Shown piece by piece: positions 4,834 to 61,583 of a stretch of DNA of 64,000 bases. Numbering within the stretch: position 1 is the first letter of the stretch; the number at the start of each line of letters is the position of its first letter. The DNA lies in NCBI GenBank assembly GCA_044870765.1, contig JBIOZG010000005.1, positions 79,938 to 143,937 on the forward strand, given 5' to 3'. The notes under the pieces were generated by a model. That model was not told the origin of the DNA and did no database searches. It worked only from the letters and a program-made list of their open reading frames with translations. The position numbers and the translations under genes are program-made. This stretch comes from Nitrososphaeraceae archaeon (GTDB taxonomy: Archaea > Thermoproteota > Nitrososphaeria > Nitrososphaerales > Nitrososphaeraceae).

Positions 4834-5042
4834 TTCCAGTTCACATTAAATTCCAAGTAAATATAAGGATAATCTAGTAATACTAAATTTCCAAGGATAA
4901 ACTATTGTAGTTGATCATGAAGCTTTTATTCTATGTGCCGGACATCGTCATACAGGCAAGGTTTATGCTGCTGTACTAAAAAACAATGCCACTAATTGAC
5001 ACAATTTTATATAGTCGATTTTGATTAAAGATAATATTTAAA

Positions 5043-5393
5043 ATGGATTATGAAAACTTATGCAAAGGGATATTAGCACTAGATCCAAAAATTCGCTTTG
5101 CCGGAGTATGTGACGAGACAGGAGAAATAAAATATGGTGGTCAGCGTGATGGGCTGGCTAATTTGTTGACTGCTGAAGAAACGAAGAGATCTAATTTGCA
5201 AGCACTTGCGAGATGGGGATTGCGGAATTCCTTGGCATCCAAAGTTGGCAAAGGAAAGTATGCCATGGCAGAGTATGAAAAGATTAAGCGAATCACTGCT
5301 CCTCTGGATAACGATCATCTCCTGCTGGTTACAACAGAAGTGGATGCGGACCACCAGAATGTAATAGCCAAGGTTCTAAAATTAATTCAATGA
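5043..5393 (+). CDS. thaumarchaeal DUF6659-like (roadblock/profilin-like) small protein
   Basis: LDPKIRFAGV..GG.R.G and EYEKIKRIT pattern of this family. Confidence 0.7.
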   Translation: MDYENLCKGILALDPKIRFAGVCDETGEIKYGGQRDGLANLLTAEETKRSNLQALARWGLRNSLASKVGKGKYAMAEYEKIKRITAPLDNDHLLLVTTEVDADHQNVIAKVLKLIQ

Positions 5394-5449
5394 TTATCTT
5401 AGTCTTTGTTTTTTTGGCGCTTACTAAGGAAGTCGACTGAAACTAGAAA

Positions 5450-5848
5450 TCACTTTATCCATCCATGTTCATGCTCTCTATGATCATGTGATGCTCCTAC
5501 GCCAGTGACTCCTCCCATGTAATCACCATACACAGCTACGACATCTTTCAAATCTGAGAGTTCTTTGAGAAATTCCAGTGTTAATTTATCGTTAAATGCG
5601 TAATGGGTACCGCTATCATGTATTGTAGGATTCATCCCAGTCTTGCTAATTATATAAGTCCGCATTTCTTCTGAATTAATTTCTGGTTTGGTAAACACTT
5701 CAATTAAATAAAAAGGGTCTTTATCAGGGCTATTACGTTTTCTCATCAACAAATCATGAATGAGTTTTGGATGAATCTTTGGAAGATGAATTTCATACAG
5801 AGTATTCAGACCCTCAAAGACTCTTTTAATTTCACTCAATTCTGACAA
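5450..5848 (-). CDS. hypothetical protein with His-rich C-terminus
   Basis: 132-aa ORF, no competing ORF, ends SHDHREHEHGWIK. Confidence 0.7.
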   Translation of the reverse strand: MSELSEIKRVFEGLNTLYEIHLPKIHPKLIHDLLMRKRNSPDKDPFYLIEVFTKPEINSEEMRTYIISKTGMNPTIHDSGTHYAFNDKLTLEFLKELSDLKDVVAVYGDYMGGVTGVGASHDHREHEHGWIK

Positions 5849-6045
5849 TTTTTAATCAATAATAATATGTGATTATAAGTATATGAGCATTTTTGCATAT
5901 CATTTTTGCAAAGCTTACTATCGTATGATTGCCCAAATTACTAGCATATCATCAATCACTACCAATTTATTGGGATAGAGTGAACCCTGTGGAAGAAGAA
6001 ATAACATATTAAATGCACTATAAATATTTCATATTGATAATCAAT

Positions 6046-6507
6046 ATGGCTGGCTTCTCAAGTGACGGGGATATCGAAAACTTGATTTTTATAATAGCCA
6101 ACCTTCCAGAATTTCTAAAAACTTCGGTTTGCAGAACTAAAACCAAGGAATTGATCGAAATGTCTGAGTCTGAAAAAAAGGAGACTATGATTAGGAGCTT
6201 GAGTTCTCTAAATTTGGTAGATAATAACAAGTTGATAGATTTAACAAAAACATGGATGAAAGTGATCTCAGAAATTGAACCTGATAAGCTTACGGAAATT
6301 TTGCATTGTTATCTAATGACATTAAGTAGTGTCAAGCTCTTTGACAAAATAGATCCAAAATTGATTTTGGATATATTCTCTTCACTTGAAGATAATCAAA
6401 GGAATAAATTGATGGTCTGTTTAAAGGAGGCACTATTTCTTAATCCAAACAGAGACGGGGTTTTGAAAAATATTCCAACGAATCTAGCCAAAGTAATACT
6501 CAATTAA
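6046..6507 (+). CDS. conserved thaumarchaeal helical hypothetical protein
   Basis: ORF 6013..6507; likely start at ATG 6046 (MAGFSS..NLPEFLK). Confidence 0.65.
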   Translation: MAGFSSDGDIENLIFIIANLPEFLKTSVCRTKTKELIEMSESEKKETMIRSLSSLNLVDNNKLIDLTKTWMKVISEIEPDKLTEILHCYLMTLSSVKLFDKIDPKLILDIFSSLEDNQRNKLMVCLKEALFLNPNRDGVLKNIPTNLAKVILN

Positions 6508-6755
6508 GGCGTTCCAGGATTTTCTGGATTTTTCTTTAATTCCTCCACTTTATCCAAACCAAAGAATCCTCTTTCATATTTTCTTAACGCTTTCCTGTGT
6601 TCTGGTAATGACATGTCTAAATGCATTTCATTAATTACCATTACTCCGTATGTGGTCCATTCTTTCCAGCAATCATTACACGATGGATATTTCAATGCTG
6701 ACGGGTCTTCAATTTCTTTTTCCTCAAAATCTTTTCCGCATTTTAAGCATTTCAT
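6504..6755 (-). CDS. Fe(II)-trafficking YggX-like protein
   Basis: CW.EW....MVINEM.LDMS.PEHRK.L..Y..GFFG resembles the YggX/Iron_traffic core. Confidence 0.75.
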   Translation of the reverse strand: MKCLKCGKDFEEKEIEDPSALKYPSCNDCWKEWTTYGVMVINEMHLDMSLPEHRKALRKYERGFFGLDKVEELKKNPENPGTP

Positions 6756-6821
6756 TAAAAGCTCATGAAACCTAAGGTTATTTTATTGTTTTATTCCACA
6801 AGCGTAATTTGGCCATTTACG

Positions 6822-7028
6822 CTACTTTTTGTAACTATGATTTTTTCTAATGTGATCCCGCATTACCTCCATTCCTTCGAACTTTGCATTACATTTCTTA
6901 CATTCATATGTCTTGTTATCGTGAGTTATTTGAAAATGATGCATAAGTTTCTCTAATGTCCTGAAATTTTTTCCACAAAAATCGCAAGTATTTTTATTTA
7001 AAAAACTAAACTTGTGAAATTTGAACAC
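6822..7028 (-). CDS. tandem C2H2 zinc-finger protein
   Basis: CxxC-x12-H-x4-H twice (CDFC..HFQITH; CKKC..HIRKNH). Confidence 0.85.
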   Translation of the reverse strand: MFKFHKFSFLNKNTCDFCGKNFRTLEKLMHHFQITHDNKTYECKKCNAKFEGMEVMRDHIRKNHSYKK

Positions 7029-7156
7029 AATTCCAATATCTATTTTTTGGTATTTATATCATTATCAAATTCATCCTGAAATGGACAGTACCATTGATAT
7101 TCGACTTTATCTATTAATGAAAATCTTATTATTTTCATTTTACATTTTGTAGCACA

Positions 7157-7738
7157 ATGGGATTGTTTGATCCTGCGTTTTATTCCAAAAGTACGAAAGA
7201 AGTTGCAAGGGACCTCCTAGGAAAGAAGCTTGTCAGAATATTTGATAATGGCTCAGGTAAGCTAATACGTTTATCTGGAATCATATCAGAAACGGAAGCA
7301 TACGGTTCAAAGGACGACCCCGCAAGCCATGCGTTTAATGGTATGACGAATAGAAATTCGGTAATGTTTGGAGAGGTTGGTAAAGCCTATGTTTATTTTA
7401 TTTATGGGGTGCATCATTGTATGAATGTTACTGCACATTCACCTGCTCATGATGCAGGAGCGGTGCTGATAAGATCATTAATACCAACAGAGGGAATAAG
7501 CTCAATGATGAGTCGATGTAATGCGCAGAATAAATTAAACCTAACAAACGGGCCTGGGAAATTAACGAGGGCTCTGGATATTAACAGATCTCATAATGGA
7601 TTTAGCTTATCTGATAGGCAATCATTATTGCACATTGAAGATGGGATAAAGCCTAATAAAGTAGTCAGTACTGCTAGAATCGGTATAAGTAGGGCTAGGG
7701 AAAAACATTGGCGATACCTGATCGTAGACGACAGGTAA
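7157..7738 (+). CDS. mpg: DNA-3-methyladenine glycosylase (MPG/AAG family)
   Basis: ETEAY, DPASHA, YVYFIYG, AVLIR, LTNGPGKL, RIGIS motifs. Confidence 0.93.
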   Translation: MGLFDPAFYSKSTKEVARDLLGKKLVRIFDNGSGKLIRLSGIISETEAYGSKDDPASHAFNGMTNRNSVMFGEVGKAYVYFIYGVHHCMNVTAHSPAHDAGAVLIRSLIPTEGISSMMSRCNAQNKLNLTNGPGKLTRALDINRSHNGFSLSDRQSLLHIEDGIKPNKVVSTARIGISRAREKHWRYLIVDDR

Positions 7739-7781
7739 ACAGGATAAAACAAAAGAAATTTGGCCGTGTTTTCTTGGACCA

Positions 7782-9506
7782 TTACCAATATCTTGCTTTT
7801 ATTTTCTCAATTACCCTTTCGTGTTCAGGGCCCCTTCTTCTAGCATATCTCTCCATTGCACCTAATGGAACTCCGCCTAATGTTCGAGCGAGTCCTGCAA
7901 AAAAGACATTCTTTATTGGATTATCTCGGCCTACTTTATGCATAAATTTCTGAATTCCGTATTTGAAATTATGTTGCCATGTCTTGTACATCACTCCCAA
8001 TTTAGGAGGATCCATGGTATTCCCAATATCAAAGAAATCTGATTTTTCTAACAATCCTATTGGAACAAATGTCAGTGGAGTAGTGGTGAACTTTGAATCT
8101 GGTTGTTCCGTTTCCAAAGAATGAATTAATTCAATTGTCTCCCAACTGTCTTCGACAGTTTCATCATTATCCAGTCCCATTATTAGTGTAAATGCAGGTA
8201 CCCAATAGTTTTCATTTAATGTCTTTATTCCATTTTTTACTACCCAGTGCCATTCGGATGGTTTGAATGGAGATAGCTTTCTATCTGCATATTTGCCGAT
8301 TAATCGTATGCTGCCAGTTTCAAAACCGCATTGAATACCTATCATATTGTCAGGTGACGCCCTAATTATTTTGGATATATTTGGTATTAATCTCTCGTCA
8401 GCAATAGCTCCTGCAAGAGTCCCATGGGTGGGATTAGTATGTTCAATTCCAGTGGACATTATTCCTGAAAATAATTCTTCTAGAGCTTCACGGTTAGGTT
8501 GCATGTTTTTAGTCGTTCTGGGATTCAAACCGTATACAAAAATATCATCGCTGTGAACCCATGCATTCTTCAATCCACCATATTTCATGTTGATTTCAAT
8601 TTCTTTTACGACTTTTTCCACCGGGTAGTATCTTAACGGTCTTAGAGTTACATCGCAAAACTTGCAGCCACGTCCACAGCCTCTCATTACCTCAATCATT
8701 CCATGCATACTAGGATTAATTATAGTTGGGATTTCATCAACGCTAGGTTCGTTCCAGTAATGAATGAATCTGCCATGATAAGTGTTACCACCTCTTTCAA
8801 ATTCTTTTATCTCAACTTTGAAAGGATTCTTCTTAAATGGATTTGCTGTATCTAGCTCATTGTTGATCAAGGCGTCAAAAAACTTCGCTCCAGCACCGTC
8901 AATTTCTGGACCTATTCCCCCCAAATCGCCCTCAACGATTCCGTATAATCCATATTCTTCTATTTTTGCAGGATCATAATTATACTGCCATGTACCGGAG
9001 GCACCTGCAATCACTTTTGCTTTACTTCCATTTTTTTCTTTTGCTCTATTAATCTTCATGTGAAGATCTTTGTTGTAAAATTCATCATACGATATCTGCT
9101 TCCGCCCATAAGTAAATGTCATAGTTACGGGTCCCATGCCAAGCGGATCCATTTCATATGTTCCTACAATCTCAGTTTCAGGACCAATGAATTTTTCTAC
9201 ATAATCAGGGTGTGCGACTACAACATCCTCCCTACTATATCCGTCTCGAACCAGTGAAGCTTCTACCTTTCTAAGCCCGTAGGGGGCGTAATCTGCAATA
9301 CCGTTGTGATGAGAAATAGGATTACAAATAAAATCAAACAATAATCTTGGTGTAACTTGGTTGCCGAGTATTTTGTACAAAAATGTATCATGTGCTCTGT
9401 TTGGATCGATAGCTGGTGCACAACCGAAAAATGATGCTAACGAGATACCTCTATACGGTGACATGAGCGTGCGATCTGCTGTGAGAACGACCTTCGGATG
9501 TTTCAA
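7782..9506 (-). CDS. B12-binding-type radical SAM protein, probable GDGT ring synthase (Grs) family
   Basis: CGRGCKFC cluster motif; N-terminal LTADRTLM, APYGLRKVEA, DPLGMGP as in GrsA/GrsB-like proteins. Confidence 0.75.
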   Translation of the reverse strand: MKHPKVVLTADRTLMSPYRGISLASFFGCAPAIDPNRAHDTFLYKILGNQVTPRLLFDFICNPISHHNGIADYAPYGLRKVEASLVRDGYSREDVVVAHPDYVEKFIGPETEIVGTYEMDPLGMGPVTMTFTYGRKQISYDEFYNKDLHMKINRAKEKNGSKAKVIAGASGTWQYNYDPAKIEEYGLYGIVEGDLGGIGPEIDGAGAKFFDALINNELDTANPFKKNPFKVEIKEFERGGNTYHGRFIHYWNEPSVDEIPTIINPSMHGMIEVMRGCGRGCKFCDVTLRPLRYYPVEKVVKEIEINMKYGGLKNAWVHSDDIFVYGLNPRTTKNMQPNREALEELFSGIMSTGIEHTNPTHGTLAGAIADERLIPNISKIIRASPDNMIGIQCGFETGSIRLIGKYADRKLSPFKPSEWHWVVKNGIKTLNENYWVPAFTLIMGLDNDETVEDSWETIELIHSLETEQPDSKFTTTPLTFVPIGLLEKSDFFDIGNTMDPPKLGVMYKTWQHNFKYGIQKFMHKVGRDNPIKNVFFAGLARTLGGVPLGAMERYARRRGPEHERVIEKIKARYW

Positions 9507-50112: not shown

Positions 50113-50336
50113 TCTATCTGTAATAATTTGGCGATATGAATTTGATTCTTTCGAAGCGATATGTATTCTAGATTGGTATCGATCGTAAAATTTTATTTTT
50201 TATTCACTGGTTTATATGTGGATACATATTATCCTACAAAGGAAATGGATATGGTATAGCATGCACAATGTATAGTACAACCAATCAAAGTATATCGGAA
50301 AAAAATCTTATATATATGGATAGTGATTGCATAGTA

Positions 50337-50654
50337 ATGGACAAGAAAAGAACCAAAGAGAAAAATAATGACTTCTATGAAATAATCTATGCAGCAACAC
50401 ATCCAGTAAGACTCAAAATTCTTGTTCGGCTTGAATCTGAAAAGGCATATGCTAGCAATCTAGAAAAAGTGATAAAAGTAGATAGGAAGATTATCTCATT
50501 TCACCTGTCCAAATTAGAAAAATCCGGTTTGGTGACAAGTGAATATGGCTTATTAACTTCTTCAAAAACAAGACCAATGGCTGTAAGATATTACTCACTT
50601 ACTCCTGAAGGAGAAAAAATGGTCAAAAAACTAAAGTCCATTATTTCGGACTAA
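50337..50654 (+). CDS. ArsR-family winged-helix regulator
   Basis: HPVRLKIL, ISFHLSKLEKSGLV, YYSLT..G; start set to ATG 50337. Confidence 0.85.
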   Translation: MDKKRTKEKNNDFYEIIYAATHPVRLKILVRLESEKAYASNLEKVIKVDRKIISFHLSKLEKSGLVTSEYGLLTSSKTRPMAVRYYSLTPEGEKMVKKLKSIISD

Positions 50655-51120: not shown

Positions 51121-51768
51121 ATGTCCTTTAAGGATAAGTGGAACAAAACCCAGTCTGAAAATATGGCTGTTAAAATCTTGGAGAGTATTAAATCTCAAAC
51201 TCCTCTAAAACCACGAATTGAGGAAGCCCAAAAAAAATTGGAGATGCAAATTACAAAGCTCGAAAGTATTTCTGGCAAAATTGTAGAAAAGGATCAGCTT
51301 ATTTTTAAAAGAATAGTACATTCAATTCAGAATCACGATGTTCAATATGCCAAGCTATTATCAAATGAACTTTCACAAATTCGCAAGATGAGCAAAATGG
51401 TAGACTCTGCTAAATTGGCATTGGAACAAATTCAATTACGTCTTAACACCATAACTGAGCTAGGTGATGTAGTAGTTACATTAACCCCGGCAATGTCTGT
51501 CATAAAGAACATTCAAGGTGGGTTAACATCAATGGTTCCAGAAGCGGATCAATCGCTATCTCAGATATCCGATCTAATGGGAGGTATACTATCTGATTCT
51601 GCACAAATTCCAAAGCATGAAGTAGACAGTGGAAGACCATTGAGTGAGGAGTCAACAAGTATCATTGAAGAAGCTACTACTCTTGTAGAACAAAGTATGA
51701 AAGAGAAATTCCCTGATCTCCCTTCAATGCACATTGATGAGAAAACCACAGAAGCATCTACCTACTAA
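51121..51768 (+). CDS. cdvB: ESCRT-III / CdvB (Snf7) family cell-division protein
   Basis: NEL.QIRK, LEQIQLRL.T..ELGDVVVTL.PAM, KFPDLP; paralog identity not resolved. Confidence 0.9.
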   Translation: MSFKDKWNKTQSENMAVKILESIKSQTPLKPRIEEAQKKLEMQITKLESISGKIVEKDQLIFKRIVHSIQNHDVQYAKLLSNELSQIRKMSKMVDSAKLALEQIQLRLNTITELGDVVVTLTPAMSVIKNIQGGLTSMVPEADQSLSQISDLMGGILSDSAQIPKHEVDSGRPLSEESTSIIEEATTLVEQSMKEKFPDLPSMHIDEKTTEASTY

Positions 51769-51772
51769 ACTC

Positions 51773-52132
51773 CTATTTTTTGTTACCTGATTTAGCTATC
51801 AATCTGATATCTTTTTTTATTCTGCTGATTGTGGGGTAGCTGTATCCTTTGTTCCTATAAGCCCTTATCATGGACTTCCAGTTTGCAATACGCCATCTGG
51901 CCTGTTCTTTTGTTAACATGCTAGTCTCTTTTTTTACGAAACTCTTTCTTCCGAGAATCAAGTAGCCACCGTCCTGGGCTTTTTGTCGATTGTATGCAAA
52001 TTTTAATCCCGAAACAATTGATTCGGGATGCAAAAGAGATAAGTAATACTTTATCTCCCGAAATTGACGTTCAGACATTGCTAATCTGATCTTTAGTTCT
52101 CTTTCTACCACGGATTTTATCATCGCGCTCAT
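51773..52132 (-). CDS. conserved basic hypothetical protein
   Basis: 119-aa ORF, YRNKGYSYPTISRIKK helix-turn-helix-like end. Confidence 0.7.
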   Translation of the reverse strand: MSAMIKSVVERELKIRLAMSERQFREIKYYLSLLHPESIVSGLKFAYNRQKAQDGGYLILGRKSFVKKETSMLTKEQARWRIANWKSMIRAYRNKGYSYPTISRIKKDIRLIAKSGNKK

Positions 52133-52141
52133 ATTACATAA

Positions 52142-52169
52142 ATATTGCTAAATTCGAATTTTGAAATAT
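52142..52169. repeat. 28-bp imperfect palindrome (11-6-11), copy 1
   Basis: ATATTGCTAAA TTCGAA TTTTGAAATAT. Confidence 0.85.
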
Positions 52170-52220
52170 ACTATTTTGGATCAACAAATAATATGTGGGA
52201 TATAATTTGGTCTGTACTAT

Positions 52221-52248
52221 TTGTTTCACAATTCGACTTATGCAATAT
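52221..52248. repeat. 28-bp imperfect palindrome, copy 2 (inverted relative to the others)
   Basis: TTGTTTCACAA TTCGAC TTATGCAATAT; reverse complement shares an exact 11-bp arm with copy 4. Confidence 0.75.
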
Positions 52249-52352
52249 GTAAGATGACAGCGCTTTGGTCAATTTGTAAACTGAAAGGAAAGATAATAGT
52301 AACAATTTATTTTGGAGCGGATTCCATATAATTGATTATCATAACTGCTACA

Positions 52353-53519
52353 TCATAGCAGTTTATGTTTTCTACCCAAATTGTAGAGCTCTTCTAAAGT
52401 ATAAACTAACTCTGCTACGGTATGTGAAGCGCTTAATGAAAGTCTCAATACGGAACATCCCTTCTTAACTGTTGGAAATCTCATGGGGTGTACAAATATG
52501 CCTTTTAATAACAATTTGCTGGCAAATTCCATAGCCAGCTTTTCAGAACCGATTTGGATTGGAATTATTTGACTAACCGAATTTCCTATATTATATCCTG
52601 TCTTCCTTAGCCCCTTTCGCACCATTTGCACATTTTTAAAAAGTTTTCTTTGTTGAACTCCCTTTTTTGCGATACTAATGGCTTCAATTGCAAAATTGCA
52701 CAAATGAGTTGGAAGGGCAGATGTGAAAATGAATTGTCTGGAACTGTTTATTAGATATTCTCTGACCATATTTGAAGACGCAACATACCCTCCGAAACAA
52801 CCTAATCCCTTACTTAAACTACTGATGTGAATATCAATTAGGTTATTTACATTTAGTTCTGAAGGCGTGCCAGATCCATGGATTCCAAAGACAAAATCGC
52901 CATGAGCGTCATCAATAATGGTAAAGGCATCAAATTCCTTTGCTAATTTAGAAATTGATTTCAAGTTTGACATGTCACCTTCTATACTGAAAATACCTTC
53001 AGTAACAATAATTTTTTTACCTTTAACTCCTCTCAATAATTTTAAGAGATGCTCCATGTTGTTGTGACGAAATACTTTGATTTTGGCACAAGAGAGTCTA
53101 CAACCATCAATAATACTTGCATGATTTAGTTCATCACTAAAAATAGTTGTATTCATATCTGCTAGACTACTTAGAGTTCCTAAAACAGCTGAATATCCCG
53201 TGGTATATACCAACGATGCTTCTGTTTTTCTATGCATTGACAACGTTTTTTCGAGGTTTTCAAAGACAGTGCTATTTCCGCCTACCAATCTAGAACTACA
53301 CTGGGAAATTTCGTTAAACTCTCTCAGTGAATTATTTATTATCTCTTGGTTTCCAGCCAAACCAAGATAATCATTCGAATTAAAATTGATTATTTTTTTA
53401 CCATTAATTAGAAGGTGCCCTTTTTGGGTATCAACAGGCCTTAATTTTCGATAAAGGTTGTCCGTTTTTAGATTACTCAGATCTGCCTTAATGAATTCGC
53501 GTATCGAGGCCAATTTCAT
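52353..53519 (-). CDS. bioF: 8-amino-7-oxononanoate synthase
   Basis: SNDYLGL, SDELNHASIIDG, DDAH, SLSKG.G..GG, FIFTSALP. Confidence 0.93.
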   Translation of the reverse strand: MKLASIREFIKADLSNLKTDNLYRKLRPVDTQKGHLLINGKKIINFNSNDYLGLAGNQEIINNSLREFNEISQCSSRLVGGNSTVFENLEKTLSMHRKTEASLVYTTGYSAVLGTLSSLADMNTTIFSDELNHASIIDGCRLSCAKIKVFRHNNMEHLLKLLRGVKGKKIIVTEGIFSIEGDMSNLKSISKLAKEFDAFTIIDDAHGDFVFGIHGSGTPSELNVNNLIDIHISSLSKGLGCFGGYVASSNMVREYLINSSRQFIFTSALPTHLCNFAIEAISIAKKGVQQRKLFKNVQMVRKGLRKTGYNIGNSVSQIIPIQIGSEKLAMEFASKLLLKGIFVHPMRFPTVKKGCSVLRLSLSASHTVAELVYTLEELYNLGRKHKLL

Positions 53520-54495
53520 GTATCATTTGGATATCCTTATTTGGTGCGTTTCCATTTGTGGTAAGGTAACCACCAATAATGATTCCATTTGCACCTGCCT
53601 GCAATGCAAGCTTACCGTTATCCTTAAAGTAAACTTCTCTTCCTCCAGCGATTTTCAGTATGGTCTTGGGCATTATAAATCGCCAAACTGCTATAGTTCT
53701 GATTATGTCGATTGTATTAATCGAACAATTCTCTAGTTCCTTTGGTGTACCTTTCCTTGGAATCAAAACATTTATTGGAACTTCATCTGGCTCAAGTGTT
53801 GACAGAGAAAAAGCTAGTTCGATTCGTTGTTTTGGAGTTTCCCCCATTCCAATTATGCCCCCGCAACAAAGCTCCAGGCCTGCATCCTTAACTGTTCTTG
53901 CCGTTTTAACCCTGTCTGCAAAATCATGGGTCTTGCATATCTCCGAAAAGAAACTTTCTGAGGCTTCTAAATTGTGGTTATAACGCTTTACACCTAGCAA
54001 TTTTAGCCTTTGAGCTCGTTGTGGTGTCATGAATCCAAGTGATACATTAATGTCCAGGTTTACTTCTTTCCTTAACCTTTCTATTACCTTACAAATTTTT
54101 TCAAATTCATTTTGTGGAGGCTCTCTATAAGCGCACACCAGACAAAAACTAGCCGCTCCATTCATTTTTGCTTCCATGGCCTTGTCTAAAATTATTTGAT
54201 CTGGAAGCAGTGGATATTTTGTTATACCAGTTTCGTAAATACTAGACTGCGCGCAAAAGGAACAATCCTCAGGACAATTTCCGGATTTTGCGTTTAACAG
54301 TGTTTCAACGTCGACACAATCTTGACTGAATTTCCTAGTAATCAAATTCGCAGAGTCGGCTAACTTTACCAAATTATCAGTCAAAATTAATCTTTCTGCT
54401 GCATCAAAGGAAATAGTATTTCCATTAATGACCTTCTTCATACAAGAATCAATGAACTCGAAATCTTGCATCAGTAGTTCTATTTTGGAACCCAT
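53488..54495 (-). CDS. bioB: biotin synthase
   Basis: CPEDCSFC, YNHNLE, CCGGIIGMGE, VPIN, GYLTT. Confidence 0.96.
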   Translation of the reverse strand: MGSKIELLMQDFEFIDSCMKKVINGNTISFDAAERLILTDNLVKLADSANLITRKFSQDCVDVETLLNAKSGNCPEDCSFCAQSSIYETGITKYPLLPDQIILDKAMEAKMNGAASFCLVCAYREPPQNEFEKICKVIERLRKEVNLDINVSLGFMTPQRAQRLKLLGVKRYNHNLEASESFFSEICKTHDFADRVKTARTVKDAGLELCCGGIIGMGETPKQRIELAFSLSTLEPDEVPINVLIPRKGTPKELENCSINTIDIIRTIAVWRFIMPKTILKIAGGREVYFKDNGKLALQAGANGIIIGGYLTTNGNAPNKDIQMIHEIGLDTRIH

Positions 54496-54847
54496 AATTA
54501 ACCTTTAATTTTGTGACCAATTCTAATATGGTTGTTATATCCAGTTGAATAAGAGAAGATCTTCCTATGGTTTTTTTCCAACGTTAGACGAAAGCAAATA
54601 CCAAAAATATTAATGTTGAAACTTATAAAAAATCAAACATAACGATTCATTTTGTCGGCGGCATACAAAATAAATTTAAGCGTCTTGAAATTAGGAAAAA
54701 TTAGCAAAAATACCTGCATTAAATGTCATTTTTCGACCATTTAGCCCCTTTAAGGAGCAGTAAAACCCATAAATCTTGACATTTCGGCGAGTATCATATT
54801 AAACCCAAGAGAGTGCGAAATTCGCCATCCTTAAGGGGTTAGACAAA

Positions 54848-54959
54848 CGTCTGAAAAAGGACCCCTTTATATACAGGGCAAAAAAATCACCATTTTTTTA
54901 CTCTTGCTTAGTCCAAAAAATGTAATACCTTTTTTTAACTGTACGTAAATTTCTTGACC
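54848..54959. promoter_or_regulatory. putative res-like site (subsites I/II/III) overlapping a TATA box upstream of the resolvase
   Basis: 28-bp cgtctgaaaaagg-ac-ccctttatataca (54848-54875), 31-bp agtccaaaaaatg..cctttttttaact (54910-54940), weaker 54940-54959. Confidence 0.5.
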
Positions 54960-54994
54960 TATGCAATTATCAAGGTTCTGTTAGAAAACATACA

Positions 54995-55585
54995 ATGAAA
55001 TATTCATTTGGATACTTGCGAGTCAGCACCGACGAGCAGACCGTCTTAAATCAGAAATTAGCGATAGAAAAGTGGGCGGCTGACAATGATTATGAAATAC
55101 TTGATTTTTTTGAAGATTCTGCAATAAGCGGTAAGATCCCTGCAATTAATAGACCCGCATTCAAAGAGATGATGGATCTCGTTAGAACCGACCGAGTCGA
55201 CTCTGTACTTGTTTATGAATTGTCGCGGGTTGGTAGATCATTTTGGGAAACACTTGACGCCATAAAATCAATAGAAATATACTCACCATTGATTTCATGT
55301 TCTCCTAAGGAGCTTTTTCTACAGACAACGGATACTAGCGTTCGGAAATTAATGATCGGCATATTGACCTGGGTAGCAGAAAGAGAAAGAGAAATGCTGA
55401 TTCAAAGGACAAAGGATGGGATGATAAGGGCAAAAATGTCCGGCAAAAATATCGGGCGGCCGAAAAAAACACTCGATAAAGACACCCTGATTAAGATGTT
55501 ATCTCAGAACATACCAAGAAATAAAATTGCTAAAAATCTTGGGATATCCAAGGCTACACTTTATAACCAAATTCGTATGATTTAG
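54995..55585 (+). CDS. small serine recombinase (resolvase/invertase family)
   Basis: GYLRVST catalytic Ser, D.AISG, RP.F, LSRVGR, ERE....RT..G, GRP and C-terminal HTH IAKNLGISKATLY. Confidence 0.93.
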   Translation: MKYSFGYLRVSTDEQTVLNQKLAIEKWAADNDYEILDFFEDSAISGKIPAINRPAFKEMMDLVRTDRVDSVLVYELSRVGRSFWETLDAIKSIEIYSPLISCSPKELFLQTTDTSVRKLMIGILTWVAEREREMLIQRTKDGMIRAKMSGKNIGRPKKTLDKDTLIKMLSQNIPRNKIAKNLGISKATLYNQIRMI

Positions 55586-55597
55586 CCAAAATAAATG

Positions 55598-56950
55598 TCA
55601 TCGATGCCGTCTTATTTTTTGGTCAAGTTTTTGTATTATTTCATATTCAGTATCAACTATCCGTCCAAGATCATGCTTTTCCATTGCTAATGGTGGGATT
55701 ATCGCAACGATGTTTCCCAGAGTTCTGAGGTACACTCCTTTTTTTAATGATTCTTTTGCAATGAAGTGGCCAATCGGAATTTTATCTATGTTTTTGATCG
55801 GTATGCCGTGTTTTCTTAATTCAATTCCACAAAGTAGACCCTTGGATCTTATGTCATAACAGATTTCCAATTCCAAAAATTTTTTTAAAAGACCAGTTAA
55901 AATCACTGAATTATCCCTTATTCTTCTAATTAGATTTAGCTTTTCGTAAAGATCCAAATTTGCCAGTGCCGCAACACATCCAACAGGGTGACCCGTAAAA
56001 GTGTGACCGTGAAAAAGTTGTTTTTTAGCCCAATAGTCTCCAAGAAATTCTCTAAAAATATCATTTGTTGTTAATGTTACTGCTAGTGGAAAATATCCTC
56101 CAGTAAGGGCTTTTGCGTAACAAACAATGTCCGGCTTTGAGTTTTGTGCATCATATTCTATCATATTGCCAAGTCTTCCAAAACCTGTAGCGATCTCGTC
56201 TAGGATCAGCAGAACGTTGTATTTTTTACAGAGTTTGCTAATTTCCCTTTGAAAGTTCTTTGGGTAGATGTTTATACCTCCTGCGATTTGAGCTCCGCTT
56301 TCCATTACAAATGCAGATATTCTTGATGATAGGTTCTTTAGTATATTTTCAATCTTAGCAATATGCGAATCATAGTTTTGGGGACCGAATTTTTCATGCC
56401 TTATAGTGGGCGAATCTACTCTTAATGTTTTGAGAAGAATTGATTTGTAGGGAGAAAAGTATCCATCAACATAACCTACTGACATGCAACCAATTGTATC
56501 GCCATGGTACCCGTTTTTTAAACAAATGAATGTTTTTTTCTCCGACATCGCTTTATTCTTCCAATATTGGGTTGAGATTTTTAGCGCAGCTTCAATTGCT
56601 GTTGAGCCGTTATCCGTGTAGAAAACTCTGCTCATTCCCTTAGCCATGGTTGTAAGACGTTTTGCCAATTTTACCGACGGATGATTTGTTAGTCCAAATA
56701 GTGAAGAATGAGGCAGAGTGTCAAGCTGCTTTTTCATCGCATCAATTATTTCTGGCCTATCATGTCCCCAAACATTACACCACATATTACTAATTCCATC
56801 AAGATATCTTCTATCTTGTGAATCGACAAAACTAAAACCGTTTCCAGATTCAATGACGATATTATTTGATCTGTTCCAGATTTTCATCTGAGTGTACGGA
56901 TGCCAAACATATCTTTTATCGAGATTATTACTATTCAATAGGAAGAGCAT
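55598..56950 (-). CDS. bioA: adenosylmethionine--8-amino-7-oxononanoate transaminase
   Basis: VWHPYTQM, W.NVWGH, DNGSTAIE.ALK, YHGDT.G, DEIATGFGR, HGHTFTG. Confidence 0.95.
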   Translation of the reverse strand: MLFLLNSNNLDKRYVWHPYTQMKIWNRSNNIVIESGNGFSFVDSQDRRYLDGISNMWCNVWGHDRPEIIDAMKKQLDTLPHSSLFGLTNHPSVKLAKRLTTMAKGMSRVFYTDNGSTAIEAALKISTQYWKNKAMSEKKTFICLKNGYHGDTIGCMSVGYVDGYFSPYKSILLKTLRVDSPTIRHEKFGPQNYDSHIAKIENILKNLSSRISAFVMESGAQIAGGINIYPKNFQREISKLCKKYNVLLILDEIATGFGRLGNMIEYDAQNSKPDIVCYAKALTGGYFPLAVTLTTNDIFREFLGDYWAKKQLFHGHTFTGHPVGCVAALANLDLYEKLNLIRRIRDNSVILTGLLKKFLELEICYDIRSKGLLCGIELRKHGIPIKNIDKIPIGHFIAKESLKKGVYLRTLGNIVAIIPPLAMEKHDLGRIVDTEYEIIQKLDQKIRRHR

Positions 56951-57164
56951 GAATATTGCACTATTTGTACATTAGCCTCAAAAAATTTTCTTGATAAAGT
57001 TTGCTCTTAACAATAAGATTAAAATGTGATTGATGATCCCAACGTATATTATTTTTGTTTCGATTCGTCCTAATTATAATATCATATCTATGTGGTCATG
57101 AGAAAGATTCTTGAAGAGTTTTTCAAAATAAGTTTATTAATAATCTGGCAATACCCTTTAGGTA

Positions 57165-57548
57165 ATGAGAACAAAAATATCTATAATCCTGCTTTTCATT
57201 TCTCTTGCATTACTAATATTATATGGTGCTGATGTAATGGCCCCAAATGCGTCTTCTGATGATGCGAAAAGTGGTTTTCTTCACTTAAATGCGGCAGTTA
57301 GGGGTGGGATCTTAGGAGGAGGTGCAGTAATCCTATCTATTATCGCTTTTGCAATTTCATTTAGGGAAAAATCTTTACTGGTATCGGTGCTTCTTTTTAT
57401 CAACGGCGGATTGATAATCGCGGGAATGATAGGAATGGCTGTTCAGGATGGAGCAAGGGAAGGTTCTACTTTGTATAGTACAACCGGATTGGGAATATTG
57501 CTAGTGGCATTGGGTGTTGTGAAAGTTATCATTACATGGAAGAAATAG
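57165..57548 (+). CDS. four-TM hypothetical membrane protein
   Basis: Four hydrophobic segments. Confidence 0.75.
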   Translation: MRTKISIILLFISLALLILYGADVMAPNASSDDAKSGFLHLNAAVRGGILGGGAVILSIIAFAISFREKSLLVSVLLFINGGLIIAGMIGMAVQDGAREGSTLYSTTGLGILLVALGVVKVIITWKK

Positions 57549-57569
57549 TTTTTTCGCGAAATCTACTCA

Positions 57570-57597
57570 ATATTTCATAATTCGAATTTAGAAAGTT
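57570..57597. repeat. 28-bp imperfect palindrome, copy 3
   Basis: ATATTTCATAA TTCGAA TTTAGAAAGTT; 24/25 identical to copy 4 over the first 25 nt. Confidence 0.85.
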
Positions 57598-57659
57598 TTT
57601 ATCCAAGACATTCATTTAGCATAACATTTATTTAAAGTAATAATTTCTGTAAAACATGC

Positions 57660-57762
57660 GCCGCTGTAGCTCAGCATGGTAGAGCAAATTCAAAGGCTAG
57701 TTACTTTGGAGCTTAACTGGCTGTTAACCAGTGGGCCATCAGTTCAAGTCTGATCAGCGGCG
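57660..57762 (+). tRNA. tRNA-Asn(GUU) with 29-nt intron at 27/28 (57688-57716)
   Basis: GCCGCUG/CAGCGGC acceptor, ACUGG/CCAGU stem, loop CUGUUAA; BHB-like central GAGC/GCUU with AAA/AAC bulges and UUCAAAG/CUUUGGA intron stem. Confidence 0.92.
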
Positions 57763-57860
57763 CTTAAATCTGGTTTACACTAGTTCCCACGAGATTATTC
57801 AAGTCCTGACAATTTGAGTTTGAATGTTACTAATTTTTAAGTCAACACGAACGCAGCACT

Positions 57861-57888
57861 ATATTGCATAATTCGAATTTAGAAATAT
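57861..57888. repeat. 28-bp imperfect palindrome, copy 4
   Basis: ATATTGCATAA TTCGAA TTTAGAAATAT. Confidence 0.85.
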
Positions 57889-57937: not shown

Positions 57938-58297
57938 TTAAAGTTGTATTATATCGAGAGCTATCGCGTTTGCCAGCAGGTCAACATGTCTTGAAGCAAC
58001 TATGTACCCATTCTTTATTTCGTTTTTTGAAATCCATCGGTTAGTTGAAGACCATAGTCTTTCTTTCCTAATTTTTTTTTCTAATTCCTCAACATCCAGT
58101 TCCTTTTCTTCGATTTCTTGTGTATCTGTTTTTTTCATTGTCAGAAGGACCTTTCTTACCAGAATTCTGCTTCCAAACCTTTGTGAAAAATCTCTAGCAG
58201 ATTCATCGTAGTCAAGTAGTTTAATCTTTATCTGGACTCTGTTTAAGACGTCTCTGCTCGTCAGCAGTCTGTCGTCAACAAATCTATCGTATGACAT
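57938..58297 (-). CDS. conserved thaumarchaeal hypothetical protein
   Basis: Clean 119-aa ORF. Confidence 0.7.
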   Translation of the reverse strand: MSYDRFVDDRLLTSRDVLNRVQIKIKLLDYDESARDFSQRFGSRILVRKVLLTMKKTDTQEIEEKELDVEELEKKIRKERLWSSTNRWISKNEIKNGYIVASRHVDLLANAIALDIIQL

Positions 58298-58354
58298 CTC
58301 TGTTTCTAGTAAGAATTATTGAATAATTAAATCATACAGTAAATGATTCGTGCA

Positions 58355-58699
58355 TCATGTAACTGAGAATTCATAGTACGGAGAATTGTCCTTACCCAGA
58401 CCACATCTGGTTAATTTTACCGGGCTACCGGGAGACATATTCCCTTGACTTAAACTTCCTATGATCCTGATGCCCGACATCTCGACTAGTCCTAAATTTT
58501 TTCTCTCCCCGATAAATGATTGTGAAGACTCGATTAACCTGCCCTTCGAATTTAATTTTGACATTCTAATTTTTTTAGAAAAGCAATTACTACAAATATT
58601 CGATGGTGGCCAAATCTTTGTGTTGCAATTATCGCACACCGGAACTCTGAAATCACCGCTGCTTAAATAATTGAGAAACTTTTTCATGACATCGTCCAC
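58355..58699 (-). CDS. DUF35 (Zn-ribbon + OB-fold) thiolase partner
   Basis: CxxC...WPP...CxxC followed by OB fold; downstream of thiolase. Confidence 0.85.
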   Translation of the reverse strand: MDDVMKKFLNYLSSGDFRVPVCDNCNTKIWPPSNICSNCFSKKIRMSKLNSKGRLIESSQSFIGERKNLGLVEMSGIRIIGSLSQGNMSPGSPVKLTRCGLGKDNSPYYEFSVT

Positions 58700-58805
58700 A
58701 ATAGTGTCATAATTGAACTTGTTAATAATTGATTAAATAGTATGCTTTTTTTATTTGGAACTGGATAGCCAATACTTGTACTCCTATTTCATAAAGGTGT
58801 AAGAA

Positions 58806-59909
58806 CTAAGAAAGTATGAGAACTAATGAGGAAGAACCTGCTGCTGACATATTATGCACCAAACCATTCTTGCATCGTTTGATCTGTCTTTTTCCAGCCT
58901 TTCCCTTTAATTGCTGACAAATTTCTACCGTTTGTGCCACACCTGTGGCTCCTAACGGATGACCCATTCCTAATATTCCTCCACGGGGATTGATCGTAAT
59001 ACTTTGCTGCGATACAAACTTTGCTCCTTCCCCTTTTTCACAAAGCCCCAAGTCTTCATATGCAAGAATCTCCATTATTGTGAATGCGTCGTGAAGCTCA
59101 ACAATATCTATTTGTTTTGGTTTAACATTCGCCATGGCAAAAGCCATGTTAGAGGCCTTTCTTGTAGATTGTATATATGAGAGATTGGAGCTGACGTTAC
59201 CAAAACTTGCAGCTTCGACCGAACTACCTATCCCTTCTATCCATACCGGACGGTCTGTATATTGTTCGGCCTCATCTTCGTTTGTAAGTAATATTGCTGA
59301 AGCCCCATTACAGATATTGGAACAATCTAGCAATTTTATTGGCTCCACAAGTTTTTTTGAATTCATCACCTCGTTGACTGTTATTTTTTTTCTAAACAAA
59401 GCATTTTGATTCAGGCAAGCGTTTTTTCTATTTTTCACTGCAACTGATGCCATTTGTTCTTCTGTTGTGCCGTATTTACGCATGTGGGCTTTTGCAAATA
59501 GGGCAGCCCAGTAAATAGGTGAGGTAAAACTTCCCCTTGAGACATCCCATGCTAAACGAGATCCTTTGGTTTGTTTCATGTCGGCCCCAACAACTAGCGC
59601 AGTCTTACACAAGCCAGATTTTATAAAAGAATATGCAGAGACAATAGCATTGGTACCAGAATTACATAGATTATCCAATCTTTGAGAAATAGTTGGTTTT
59701 ATTCCCAAATATTCTGATATAATGGTTGAGCCGTATTGAATATCGGAAGTCGTCGATAAAATAACTGCATCAATCTTAACATCAGCCTTTCTTGAATTTT
59801 GCATAATAGTTTTACAAGGCTCGCATGCCAATTGTTGAAGTGACAAAGATGTATCTTTATTGAATTCTGAGGTTGACTCATCAACTATGGCTATTCTAGA
59901 CATTTTCAA
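58806..59909 (-). CDS. thiolase (acetyl-CoA acetyltransferase, archaeal/SCP2-like)
   Basis: NLCNSG, ELHDAF, GHPLGATG. Confidence 0.9.
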   Translation of the reverse strand: MKMSRIAIVDESTSEFNKDTSLSLQQLACEPCKTIMQNSRKADVKIDAVILSTTSDIQYGSTIISEYLGIKPTISQRLDNLCNSGTNAIVSAYSFIKSGLCKTALVVGADMKQTKGSRLAWDVSRGSFTSPIYWAALFAKAHMRKYGTTEEQMASVAVKNRKNACLNQNALFRKKITVNEVMNSKKLVEPIKLLDCSNICNGASAILLTNEDEAEQYTDRPVWIEGIGSSVEAASFGNVSSNLSYIQSTRKASNMAFAMANVKPKQIDIVELHDAFTIMEILAYEDLGLCEKGEGAKFVSQQSITINPRGGILGMGHPLGATGVAQTVEICQQLKGKAGKRQIKRCKNGLVHNMSAAGSSSLVLILS

Positions 59910-60894
59910 TTAGAAGGAGAGAGTCATTGATTGATTGTTCATTGTCCTTAACGGGATTTACTTGTAATATTGGAAGAGAGATACCGGACGAGGCAAATCG
60001 TTTTAGAGATTTGATGCATTCCTCAACTGTTCCATTGATTGTCAGTGAATCAAGCATTGAATCTGTCACATATTCAATGGTACTTTCAATACCATTTTTC
60101 TTATATTCTGTTGTTATTTGTTTTACTTCATCTTCAAATCCATGTGAGGACAAAAATTTGTTATAGTATTTGCCTACAGCCACATAAAATGCCAGCGTCT
60201 TTGCTGCTCTGCTGCGTGCCAGATCAGGATGCTTGTTTGAAACCGCCGTAATAAATACAGTACTGATTTCAAAATTAGATTTACTGGACAATACTGATTT
60301 GATGAATTCTGTTGTTTTTTTAATCTCATCTAATGGACGAAGATACAAAATTATCCCGTCTGCCTCTTCTACTGCTAGTTTAATCATTCCTGAATTTACT
60401 GCACCAAGATAAACAGGAATTCTTTTTCTTGATGATGGGTGCAAAATCCGCATGTTTTTTAACCTGAAAAATTCTCCATCAAAGTTTATCGTTTCTGCTC
60501 TGGAGATGATTTTAAAGCACATCAAGTATTCCCGCATACGCCTAAGTGGATGTTCAAAACTTATTCCATGCCAGTTTTCAGCAAGAACCGGTGTACTTGC
60601 ACCTATTCCAATTATTGTACGATTTGAGGAAATATTATCTAAGGTAGAAGCGGCCATTGCCAATGTAGCGGGTGTTCTAGAAAACATGCTTACAATCGAA
60701 GTTCCTATCTTTATCTTTTCAGTAATCGCCGCAATGGCTCCTAGCATTACAAAGGCCTCGCGTCCCCAAGACTCAGGAATCCATATAGAACTCACATTTG
60801 GTCTAACGTCTAATAATTTACCGATTTTTAGAATATCTTGAGCGTCAAACAGGCTACTTGGGTTGTAGCCGATTTGAGCGATCTTCTCAGTCAT
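59896..60894 (-). CDS. LLM-class (probably F420-dependent) oxidoreductase
   Basis: WIPESWG, IGTSI...SRTPA, R.IIGIG, P.YLGA; cof genes present in the window. Confidence 0.85.
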   Translation of the reverse strand: MTEKIAQIGYNPSSLFDAQDILKIGKLLDVRPNVSSIWIPESWGREAFVMLGAIAAITEKIKIGTSIVSMFSRTPATLAMAASTLDNISSNRTIIGIGASTPVLAENWHGISFEHPLRRMREYLMCFKIISRAETINFDGEFFRLKNMRILHPSSRKRIPVYLGAVNSGMIKLAVEEADGIILYLRPLDEIKKTTEFIKSVLSSKSNFEISTVFITAVSNKHPDLARSRAAKTLAFYVAVGKYYNKFLSSHGFEDEVKQITTEYKKNGIESTIEYVTDSMLDSLTINGTVEECIKSLKRFASSGISLPILQVNPVKDNEQSINDSLLLIENV

Positions 60895-61583
60895 TTTTTA
60901 AATACTTGTTCAATTTCCTTGGAGGCTTCATCAACATCCTTGTGGGAGTCTATCGATCGCCAATAATTATTTGAAAACTTTTTGGCCTTCAATTTTTGTT
61001 TCTCTACTAGCATAGGCAAGGTAACAGTTTCTAGGTTCCCATTATCCGGGAGGTAATCAAAAATATCATTTGAAAAATAATACACTCCCGCGTTAACCCA
61101 TCTATCCTCAATGTATGGTTTTTCTACAAACTTTGATACAAGATCACCATTCGTTTCTACAATACCAAACGTACTTTTCAAAGGAACTAACGCAAGTGTC
61201 ATTGATCCTTTGTCGGATATCGTAAAAGGATCTAAATTGGTCAAGATATCTCCATTGATAACAAAAAACCCGGAATCAGAGTTTCCGTTTTGAATTATGT
61301 GGTCTTTTGCATTCTTCAATGCACCGCCTGTTCCAAGGGGTACGTTCTCTTCAATATAGCTTATATTAACTCCAAATTTTTTACCATCCGCAAGATGATG
61401 CTTTATCTTCTCCCTTAGATGACCCACAAGTACGATAATATCTGTAATTCCGAATTTTTTTAACCATTTTACTTGCAATTCTATGATCGGTGTATTGTTG
61501 ATTTGGATCATAGGTTTTGGCCTATCTGACGTTAAAGGTCTTAGTCTTTTTCCCAGACCGCCAGCAAGAATAACTGTTATCAC
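60891..61583 (-). CDS. sugar-phosphate nucleotidyltransferase
   Basis: LAGGLGKRLRPLT..PKPM, PLGTGG, NGD, F.EKP. Confidence 0.9.
   Translation of the reverse strand: MITVILAGGLGKRLRPLTSDRPKPMIQINNTPIIELQVKWLKKFGITDIIVLVGHLREKIKHHLADGKKFGVNISYIEENVPLGTGGALKNAKDHIIQNGNSDSGFFVINGDILTNLDPFTISDKGSMTLALVPLKSTFGIVETNGDLVSKFVEKPYIEDRWVNAGVYYFSNDIFDYLPDNGNLETVTLPMLVEKQKLKAKKFSNNYWRSIDSHKDVDEASKEIEQVFKK

Follow-up and report, generated by a model that had tools for sequence, protein, structure and literature searches.

Locus of the S element

The stretch analyzed here, called the window below, comprises 64,000 nucleotides of contig JBIOZG010000005.1 (positions 79,938 to 143,937, forward strand) in the assembly GCA_044870765.1 of a Nitrososphaeraceae archaeon. 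Between positions 52142 and 57888, it contains several copies of a 28-bp palindrome, here named S, that fits the 28-bp layout of dif recombination sites (i.e., two 11-bp inverted arms and a 6-bp spacer). An earlier model-based reading of the window (the sequence-only reading) had described four such intergenic dif-like palindromes, at 52142, 52221, 57570, and 57861, and all four were confirmed.

S1, 52142-52169, no strand: 28-bp palindrome, 0 mismatches to the consensus, matrix score 41.2
S2, 52221-52248, no strand: degenerate copy, 4 mismatches to the consensus, matrix score 24.7
S3, 57570-57597, no strand: 2 mismatches to the consensus, matrix score 33.5
S4, 57861-57888, no strand: 0 mismatches to the consensus, matrix score 38.6

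A consensus search allowing ≤2 mismatches recovered the copies at 52142, 57570, and 57861 against an expectation of 0.00 (100 shuffles). With a weight matrix trained on 242 distinct related sites, the best score outside S was 8.7 genome-wide (2,015,293 bp) and 7.1 within the window, compared with 24.7 for the weakest copy, in agreement with the earlier statement that the window holds no further copies. The window match scoring 7.1, at 32047, falls inside a 356-amino-acid (aa) open reading frame (ORF) and is taken as chance. No fifth copy with ≤4 mismatches was found in the whole assembly (59 contigs, 2,015,293 bp). The second copy had been labeled inverted; the site itself stands, but the orientation label carries little meaning because S is a near-perfect palindrome. 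S2 starts 79 bp from the start of S1, and adjacent copies start 69 to 82 bp apart in many lineages, a spacing that suggests a paired, res-like, or looped arrangement.

The genes and the tRNA of the locus are as follows.

51121-51768, plus strand: cdvB2, an ESCRT-III (endosomal sorting complex required for transport III) cell-division protein with a profile match to PDB 9s97
51773-52132, minus strand: orf119A, a small all-helical protein; converges on cdvB2
52353-53519, minus strand: bioF, between S2 and S3
53488-54495, minus strand: bioB, between S2 and S3
54995-55585, plus strand: serine recombinase (resolvase) with a YLRVSTDEQ motif and a C-terminal HTH_7 domain
55598-56950, minus strand: bioA, between S2 and S3
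57165-57548, plus strand: membrane ORF of 127 aa, between S2 and S3
57660-57762, plus strand: tRNA-Asn(GTT), Rfam tRNA match of 46.9 bits; flanked by S3 and S4
57938-61583, minus strand: block of orf119B, zf-ChsH2, thiolase, luciferase-like, and NTP-transferase genes, beyond S4

This layout agrees with the earlier description, in which S2 and S3 enclose bioF, bioB, the resolvase gene, bioA, and the membrane gene, and S3 and S4 enclose tRNA-Asn. S3 lies 21 bp past the membrane-ORF stop and 62 bp upstream of the tRNA 5' end; S4 lies, as had been noted, between convergent 3' ends, those of tRNA-Asn and orf119B (ORF 57938-58297, minus strand). The identity of the tRNA was established by Rfam and by direct reading of its anticodon arm (ACTGG-CTGTTAA-CCAGT), in which the anticodon GTT specifies Asn. 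Its intron of approximately 29 nt lies between the D arm and the anticodon stem and not at the canonical 37/38 position, and because of this noncanonical intron, ARAGORN misses the gene or, depending on the genome, calls it Lys, Ile, Ala, Glu, or Thr.

Sequence of S

Across the 242 distinct sites, S is exactly 28 bp long, and the flanking positions carry ≤0.12 bits (information values are inflated here, because the sites were gathered by their likeness to the consensus). Within each half, T4, T5, C7, A10, A11, T13, and C14 are conserved at 98 to 100%; position 8 holds either A or T, and position 12 holds T in 81% of cases and otherwise C. No part of the element is better conserved than the central TCGA. 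The inner AA-N6-TT is conserved at 98 to 99%, and the T of TAA-N6-TTA occurs in only 13% of half-sites. The two halves of a site differ at 0 to 6 positions and vary almost independently of each other, which suggests that S is recognized by a protein dimer; an RNA or DNA hairpin was rejected on the same ground.

Conservation of S across ammonia-oxidizing archaea

S is conserved clade-wide in ammonia-oxidizing archaea (AOA) and is not specific to biotin genes. It is present in 23 of the 24 genomes of the genus to which the window belongs (a count that includes the unpublished G020), in 64 of the 73 genomes of the family (including the unpublished G111), and in 3 of the 16 other families of the order; a control with the reversed pattern gave zero matches everywhere in the genus and order tally. 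A wide scan covering one genome per prokaryotic species returned 79 loci among the matches listed. The full 28-bp S with ≤3 mismatches was found in 53 of these, all with thaumarchaeal or archaeal titles, including Nitrosopumilus, Nitrosarchaeum, Nitrosotenuis, Nitrosotalea, Nitrosopelagicus, Nitrosocaldus, Nitrososphaera, Thaumarchaeota, and "uncultured archaeon." The other 26 listed loci, nearly all with bacterial titles, matched only a 22-nt core rather than 28 bp and were taken as chance.

The number of copies per genome ranges from 1 to 6 (four in the genome studied here, six at locus L283), always in a single cluster spanning 2 to 25 kb and never elsewhere in the 2- to 4-Mb genomes. A scan for scattered promoter sites, which would have spoken against the sequence-only reading, thus found strictly clustered sites, and the conservation check on relatives found them kept across the whole clade. 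The densest array is that of L283 (G071:C603, 231-4450), in which six copies lie within 4.4 kb: three are <400 bp upstream of bioB, one is past bioF, and two are upstream of orf119A. Two gene orders recur outside the window.

Nitrosopumilaceae: S8, L6, (c38), tRNA-Asn, S, S, Zn-ribbon gene, small membrane gene, S, DUF2299, DUF4352, S, PNPOx (minus strand), ArsR (minus strand), purC (minus strand)
Nitrosotenuis, Nitrosotalea, and Nitrosocaldus types and family f4: tRNA-Asn, S, S ... orf119A, cdvB2 (minus strand) ... bioF (minus strand), bioB (minus strand)

The steadiest neighbor of S across AOA is tRNA-Asn, at the end of a ribosomal-protein operon (L6). The orf119A-cdvB2 pair is a constant companion in most lineages, and bio genes accompany S in some lineages only. 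Nitrosopumilaceae loci carry the same sites without adjoining bio genes, and the special link to biotin implied by the sequence-only reading is thus not supported. A BirA-type biotin operator was likewise rejected, given the bio-free loci and the lack of S upstream of bioB or bioA in the window's own genus. In Nitrosopumilaceae, S also lies between convergent ends past the PNPOx gene.

Position of the S cluster at the replication terminus

Chromosome position was determined in ten single-contig genomes as the distance, in fractions of the circle, from the S cluster to the best-scoring orc1/cdc6 match. The cluster is nearly opposite orc1/cdc6 in all ten (0.40 to 0.49 of the circle), with values of 0.447 (G032), 0.440 (G036), 0.476 (G044), 0.479 (G041), 0.469 (G043), 0.467 (G055), 0.397 (G056), 0.447 (G057), 0.486 (G073), and 0.480 (G074). 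Each genome has one clear best match; weaker Cdc6_C matches number one in G073 and two in G074, and no Cdc6_C or cdc6 gene adjoins the cluster in any of the ten.

Strand bias was sampled in 40 windows of 20 kb each in two genomes of different families, G036 and G074. In G036, the cumulative gene-strand bias climbs from the cdc6 end and peaks at 891 to 911 kb, the sample that holds the cluster, and the cumulative GC skew leaves its minimum plateau at the cluster (the minimum is broad, at 690 to 911 kb). In G074, the cumulative strand bias and AT skew peak at 1,345 to 1,365 kb, again the cluster-holding sample; the GC skew is noisy there, and along the window's own contig it is uninformative. 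A second replication origin at S was rejected, as the strand bias peaks rather than dips at the cluster and no cdc6 gene is adjacent. The S cluster is thus located at the replication terminus, the origin being assumed to lie at orc1/cdc6 from general archaeal knowledge. Origin mapping in N. maritimus was reportedly carried out by Pelve et al. in 2013. The suggestion of a multi-dif terminus region was borne out to the extent that this is a terminus region with several dif-shaped (11-6-11) sites. Symmetric inversions about the origin-terminus axis could, on their own, also keep a locus that was ancestrally at the terminus from moving, even if it has no role there.

Rearrangements with breakpoints at S

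The bioB-bioF segment, bracketed by two S sites, occurs in both orientations among Nitrososphaera-type relatives, with 10 of 13 loci in one state and 3 in the other. In a comparison of two contigs of metagenome-assembled genomes of Nitrososphaera (L048 and L054), the flanks (2-3690 and 6206-8017) align reversed and the bioB-bioF segment (4000-6234) aligns forward, with both junctions inside the two S sites. The three inverted loci (L054, L188, and L284) form one clade together with L048; the bioBF and bioA trees need two changes of orientation, and the cdvB2-orf119A tree needs one.

Larger segments behave similarly. One genus carries the entire bioA-resolvase-bioB-bioF block, with S on either side, in the orientation opposite to that of two others. 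In the window's own genus, tRNA-Asn, S4, orf119B, and the genes up to that for the NTP-transferase (the tRNA and 5 genes) form a block that runs opposite to its orientation in two sister genera; S3 lies at one of the breakpoints, and the other has retained no site. Relative to bioF, the cdvB2-orf119A pair has opposite orientations in Nitrososphaeraceae and in the other families, and S lies at the boundary of this inversion. In the resolvase-free lineages, all 17 Nitrosopumilaceae and Nitrosocaldaceae loci with tRNA-Asn and the Zn-ribbon gene are collinear; thus, rearrangements are seen only in the family with a serine recombinase in the locus.

The invertible biotin module proposed in the sequence-only reading therefore survives in part: S-bounded bioB-bioF and bioA-resolvase-bioB-bioF segments are inverted between genomes, but a link to biotin in particular is not supported. 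Both orientations are known from comparisons between genomes only. In Logan contigs from 4 metagenome runs, all four sites of the window are bridged in the reference order with no joint at the sites, a result that neither supports nor refutes inversion because such contigs are unable to show its absence. Loose ends in these contigs at 57764/57765 are tRNA flanks from other organisms.

S copies in mobile DNA and viruses

A 12.2-kb insertion lies beside S in G073 (G073:C1:1493155-1505455; L181 and L281). Similarity to three sister genomes breaks off ≤65 bp from one S copy and picks up again 12.2 kb farther on, 170 bp upstream of the resolvase gene. The island contains a Rep gene, a Zn-ribbon ORF, an AAA-like ORF, several ORFans, and an internal S copy. 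Its first 7.35 kb are bracketed by two S copies and encode a rolling-circle Rep protein (PF23343, 2.9e-13; PF01446, 1.2e-07). No integrase was recognized in this 7.35-kb part, and no relatives of the Rep protein were found in viral contigs.

A scan of IMG/VR for S yielded 61 stretches, of which 49 are contigs of 4.1 to 4.8 kb with 37 to 43% G+C. Each of the 49 carries one full-length S with 2 to 6 mismatches, mostly ATGTTTCTAAAYTCGARTTTAGAAACAT, the form found on marine AOA chromosomes. In six contigs the site stands at both ends, so that these are circular, and 48 of the 49 are mutually related by blastn, representing a family of approximately 4.2 kb (among L285-L338). Between viral contigs and AOA chromosomal loci, S alone is similar (up to 97% identity over 28 to 31 bp). 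The viral sites are intergenic, lying outside ORFs of ≥80 aa in all 43 contigs tested. In the one family member searched (L295, 1-4305), none of ten ORFs had a Pfam match, including to a recombinase or Rep; its sole PHROGs match was borderline (E value of 0.0099, to a family of unknown function), and look-alikes of its 257-aa protein are viral clusters. No named phage resembles these viruses, no integrated copy was present in the chromosomal loci examined, and all 11 metagenome relatives are on contigs of ≤4.3 kb. Judged by the shared site, the 4.2-kb viruses probably have marine AOA as hosts, to which the presence of S points.

Recombinases

The serine recombinase of the locus is encoded by the sole PF00239 gene of its genome, and three genera retain it at this locus. 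Its catalytic YLRVSTDEQ motif is intact, an HTH_7 domain is found at the C terminus, and among NCBIfam models the protein best matches that of the Mpi DNA-invertase family (85 bits versus a cutoff of 272); from its sequence, the enzyme looks active. The gene is inside or next to S-bracketed segments in 24 of the 26 Nitrososphaeraceae loci listed and is 12 kb away in G073. In the family-f4 locus, S is retained, the recombinase gene is absent, and bioA and bioB are only 42 bp apart. Because of this short f4 distance, the resolvase gene and the adjacent 54496-54994 region look like an old insertion. That region, the gap between bioB and the resolvase gene, consists of 500 bp of noncoding DNA in which CCCCTTTAAGGAG ... 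CATCCTTAAGGGG form a long-range inverted repeat. Its blocks ACGTCTGAAAA..GGAC and TTTTTTTACTCTTG recur upstream of the resolvase gene in another genus, and the region could be a mobile-element remnant, a regulatory region, or an RNA.

Tyrosine recombinases are less uniform. The window's own genome has three Phage_integrase matches, none of them on the window's contig. Among five complete genomes, Phage_integrase ORFs range from 130 to 528 aa (the tyrosine recombinases proper from 350 to 526 aa), belong to differing groups, and are 20 to 35% identical between genomes; one of the five has only partial, weak tyrosine-recombinase matches.

orf119A, cdvB2, and the promoter context of S

The cdvB2 product matches "Cell division protein B2" (PDB 9s97) with a profile E value of 1.1e-50; the Pfam Snf7 model scores it weakly (E value of 0.0069) despite this clear structural match. 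cdvB2 is the usual neighbor of orf119A, and the pair is kept in every S-bearing family examined. Thaumarchaeal data from soil and marine settings contain >1,200 unnamed relatives of orf119A, which has no Pfam, NCBIfam, or PDB profile match. Its structural model is confident and all-helical (pLDDT of 86.4); a Foldseek search against PDB returned nothing at an E value of ≤0.001, and the best Z score in a wide structure search (VIA), 5.7, is inside the noise range of helical bundles. A predicted complex of CdvB2 and orf119A scored 0.00, which counts neither way. orf119A was found in precisely the S-bearing families (f1, f4, f9, and f13) and in none of 13 others sampled, a co-occurrence that may mirror clade membership alone because related genomes are not independent. 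We consider its product a candidate S-binding protein. ArsR-type helix-turn-helix (HTH) genes are also found a few genes from the cluster, at 50268-50654 of the window (Nitrososphaeraceae) and at 2701-3204 of L070 (Nitrosopumilaceae), and their products are alternative candidates.

S1 directly adjoins the TATA-like box TTATGTAATA (minus strand, 52132-52141) of the orf119A promoter. A TATA-like box is found at the S edge on the orf119A side in the window's own genus (TTATNTAATA), in a sister genus (GTTAATTAAC), and in the Nitrosocaldus type (TATTATAA). The true start of orf119A is probably a downstream ATG or GTG. By general archaeal promoter geometry, S would cover the position of the transcription factor B recognition element (BRE) of this probably leaderless gene. 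In most loci, S is the first feature upstream of three genes: orf119A (15 of 20 loci; median distance, 30 bp), the Zn-ribbon gene (17 of 18; 89 bp), and DUF2299 (10 of 10; 65 bp). In five Nitrosopumilus-type genomes, orf119A lies 11 to 324 kb away from the cluster, and no S copy is closer to it than 1.5 kb; cdvB2 still adjoins the displaced gene in three of the five.

Interpretation of S

We tentatively interpret S as a dif/cer-like recombination site of an undescribed system at the AOA replication terminus, outside the XerA/dif family, and assign this reading a probability of roughly 0.45. It is favored because it fits the dyad, the single cluster, the terminus position, the breakpoints, the Rep island, and the presence of S on small replicons without a recognizable recombinase. 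In the proposed mechanism, a dimeric protein would bind each 28-bp dyad, and two copies would undergo strand exchange, through which chromosome dimers would be converted to monomers. Copies within one chromosome may occasionally recombine and invert the intervening DNA, and the small viruses and the Rep-bearing island may carry or be flanked by S because they, too, rely on this reaction of the host. In Nitrososphaeraceae, including the present genome, the embedded serine recombinase would be the likely catalyst, with the four S copies as the sites open to it. S1 may double as a control site of orf119A, whose product could be an S-binding or accessory factor.

Several observations weigh against this reading, beginning with the enzymes. 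No XerA-grade protein was found: the best scores against the XerA equivalog NF040815 (NCBIfam), which has a cutoff of 220 bits, were 103.6 (G032), 94.2 (G036), and 71.9 bits (the window's own genome). The five complete genomes have no tyrosine-recombinase ortholog in common, PF00239 serine recombinases are absent from all five complete Nitrosopumilaceae and Nitrosocaldus genomes with S, and no recombinase is common to all S-bearing genomes. Because of the missing XerA-grade hits and the 5/5 absence of PF00239, neither XerA nor the local resolvase can be the general partner of S; the sequence-only reading had named both, and neither nomination held, XerA also lacking orthologous candidates among the window's genome and the five complete relatives. 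Moreover, dif is normally single copy and S is multicopy, and a conserved TCGA center is atypical of Xer spacers. No more than one bioBF inversion event has to be assumed, as a single event is not rejected by approximately unbiased (AU) tests (P values of 0.48 and 0.14). Inversions are rare (all 7 loci of the window's own genus share one gene order, as do 9 of 11 in a sister genus), and not every rearrangement here needs S, because a DDE transposase is near one of the two exceptions in the sister genus. In G073, as much as 65 bp separates S from the left end of the insertion. Finally, three observations fit an operator: the S1-type copy abuts the orf119A TATA-like box in four families, the distance from S to a conserved codon of orf119A is near-fixed within genera (133 ± 2 bp in the window's own genus, with 131 to 134 bp in the loci listed), and S in the virus L295 lies between divergent ORFs, 13 and 27 nt away.

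An operator of a dimeric transcription factor is accordingly the main rival, because S abuts the orf119A promoter, although we regard it as unlikely. The regulon would comprise orf119A, the Zn-ribbon gene, DUF2299, small secreted proteins, and, in some genera, bioB; the viruses would copy S to place their divergent promoters under a regulator of the host, the terminus position would be inherited by chance, and the inversions would reflect ordinary recombination between short inverted repeats. Besides the promoter spacing and the viral arrangement just described, the position of S as nearest upstream feature of orf119A, the Zn-ribbon gene, and DUF2299 in most loci and the near-independence of the half-sites, as expected with protein binding, agree with this explanation. 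However, all copies are confined to one 2- to 25-kb stretch, some lie between convergent 3' ends (S4 and those past the PNPOx gene), the adjoining genes vary by lineage, and the displaced orf119A genes of the Nitrosopumilus type have no S nearby. An operator predicts neither the 10/10 terminus position nor breakpoints at S nor the Rep island; moreover, compact genomes place nearly any intergenic site <100 bp from a start codon. As for a cognate regulator, orf119A co-occurs with S and matches no DNA-binding family or fold, and ArsR-type genes lie nearby.

Less probable still is that S binds a noncatalytic terminus protein, such as a fork barrier, an unloading site or boundary for SMC (structural maintenance of chromosomes) complexes, or a matS/MatP-like link to division, perhaps formed by orf119A and CdvB2, with the rearrangements as by-products of stalled forks. 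The terminus position and strand-bias switch, the several palindromic copies per cluster, and the pairing of orf119A with cdvB2 in every S-bearing family examined (and in 3/5 Nitrosopumilus-type genomes after displacement) are consistent with such a protein, as is the unloading of SMC at clusters of XerD-binding, dif-like sites in a bacterial terminus (PMC11840125). Yet a fork barrier or anchor would be of no evident use to 4.2-kb viruses, inversions are confined to the recombinase-bearing family, and orf119A has no detectable DNA-binding fold. We consider it improbable that S serves the local serine recombinase only, as a hix/gix/res-like site in a self-contained invertible-segment system. 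Its dyad with a central CG, A/T-rich inner parts, and conserved outer parts has the shape of res site I or hix, the gene accompanies the S-bracketed segments in nearly all listed Nitrososphaeraceae loci, and the segment occurs in both orientations; against this, S is equally conserved in the five PF00239-free complete genomes and in the viruses, and the f4 locus keeps S without the gene. A canonical XerA/dif site is the least credible possibility. It would account for the 11-6-11 shape, the terminus position, and the inner AA-N6-TT, but not for the multicopy state, for the lack of a XerA-grade protein or of an ortholog common to all genomes, or for the 13% frequency of the T of TAA-N6-TTA. This T has been named the most conserved feature of archaeal dif (PMC11840125).

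A more elaborate version of the recombination-site reading is doubtful as a whole. In it, AOA without XerA would use an undescribed system for dimer resolution or terminus processing, in which S is the site, orf119A is an S-controlled binder that couples terminus processing to division, and the 4.2-kb viruses parasitize S. As a short, clustered site at the terminus, S is a concrete handle on replication termination, chromosome-dimer resolution, and the coupling of segregation to ESCRT-type division in AOA, and it can be used directly in pull-downs, chromatin immunoprecipitation (ChIP), electrophoretic mobility shift assays (EMSA), and recombination assays. It also predicts the terminus in draft AOA genomes, ties a group of small, uncultured viruses with circular genomes to AOA as hosts, and explains the differing gene order around bio genes among Nitrososphaeraceae genera.

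Comparison with known systems

The literature searched shows no dif site or terminus element for AOA, in line with the earlier statement that no such arrangement had been described. In the parts consulted, a survey of thaumarchaeal integrated elements, including four supplementary files, does not mention S (PMC6563490), and the published thaumarchaeal RbkR motif, TTAC-N10-GTAA, is unlike S (PMC5397151). For archaeal dif, one source gives the criterion TAA-N6-8-TTA and the 28-bp site of Thermococcus kodakarensis and describes the sites as single or, in one case, double (PMC11840125). S resembles Xer/dif in being a 28-bp dyad (11-6-11) that is intergenic, roughly opposite the origin, and conserved over a large clade. 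It differs in being multicopy, in lacking a XerA-grade enzyme, and in having a palindromic spacer that is its most conserved part, and its arms have no clear similarity to the T. kodakarensis dif. S thus fails two defining tests of Xer/dif, the Xer enzyme and the single copy.

The cer and psi sites of small plasmids and the integrative mobile elements exploiting Xer (IMEX), such as filamentous phages that integrate at dif, exploit the Xer machinery of the host. Similarly, small circular replicons without a recognizable recombinase (one member searched) carry one copy of the host site S, and one chromosomal island with a rolling-circle Rep lies between two host sites, as in IMEX; unlike IMEX, the 4.2-kb viral family has no integrated copy in the loci examined. 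As in Gin/gix, Hin/hix, Bacteroides Mpi, and Tn3 res site I, a small HTH_7 serine recombinase is encoded beside or inside segments bracketed by dyads of approximately 28 bp, and, as with the serine invertases, these segments are found in both orientations. In contrast to those systems, S predates the recombinase and is retained where the enzyme is lacking, inversions are evolutionarily rare, the S locus yielded no enhancer or accessory sites, and the recombinase scores below the Mpi family cutoff (85 versus 272 bits).

The pdif modules of Acinetobacter plasmids, the comparison drawn in the sequence-only reading, are also separated by dif-like arrays and differ in content and orientation among relatives, as do the gene modules parted by S; however, the S locus is chromosomal, lies at the terminus, holds mostly housekeeping genes, and has no Xer pair. 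Like matS/MatP and the XerD-binding sites (XDS) of bacteria, S consists of several short palindromic or dif-like sites restricted to the terminus. The S cluster nevertheless spans just 2 to 25 kb, and S, unlike these sites, is also found on small viruses and at inversion breakpoints.

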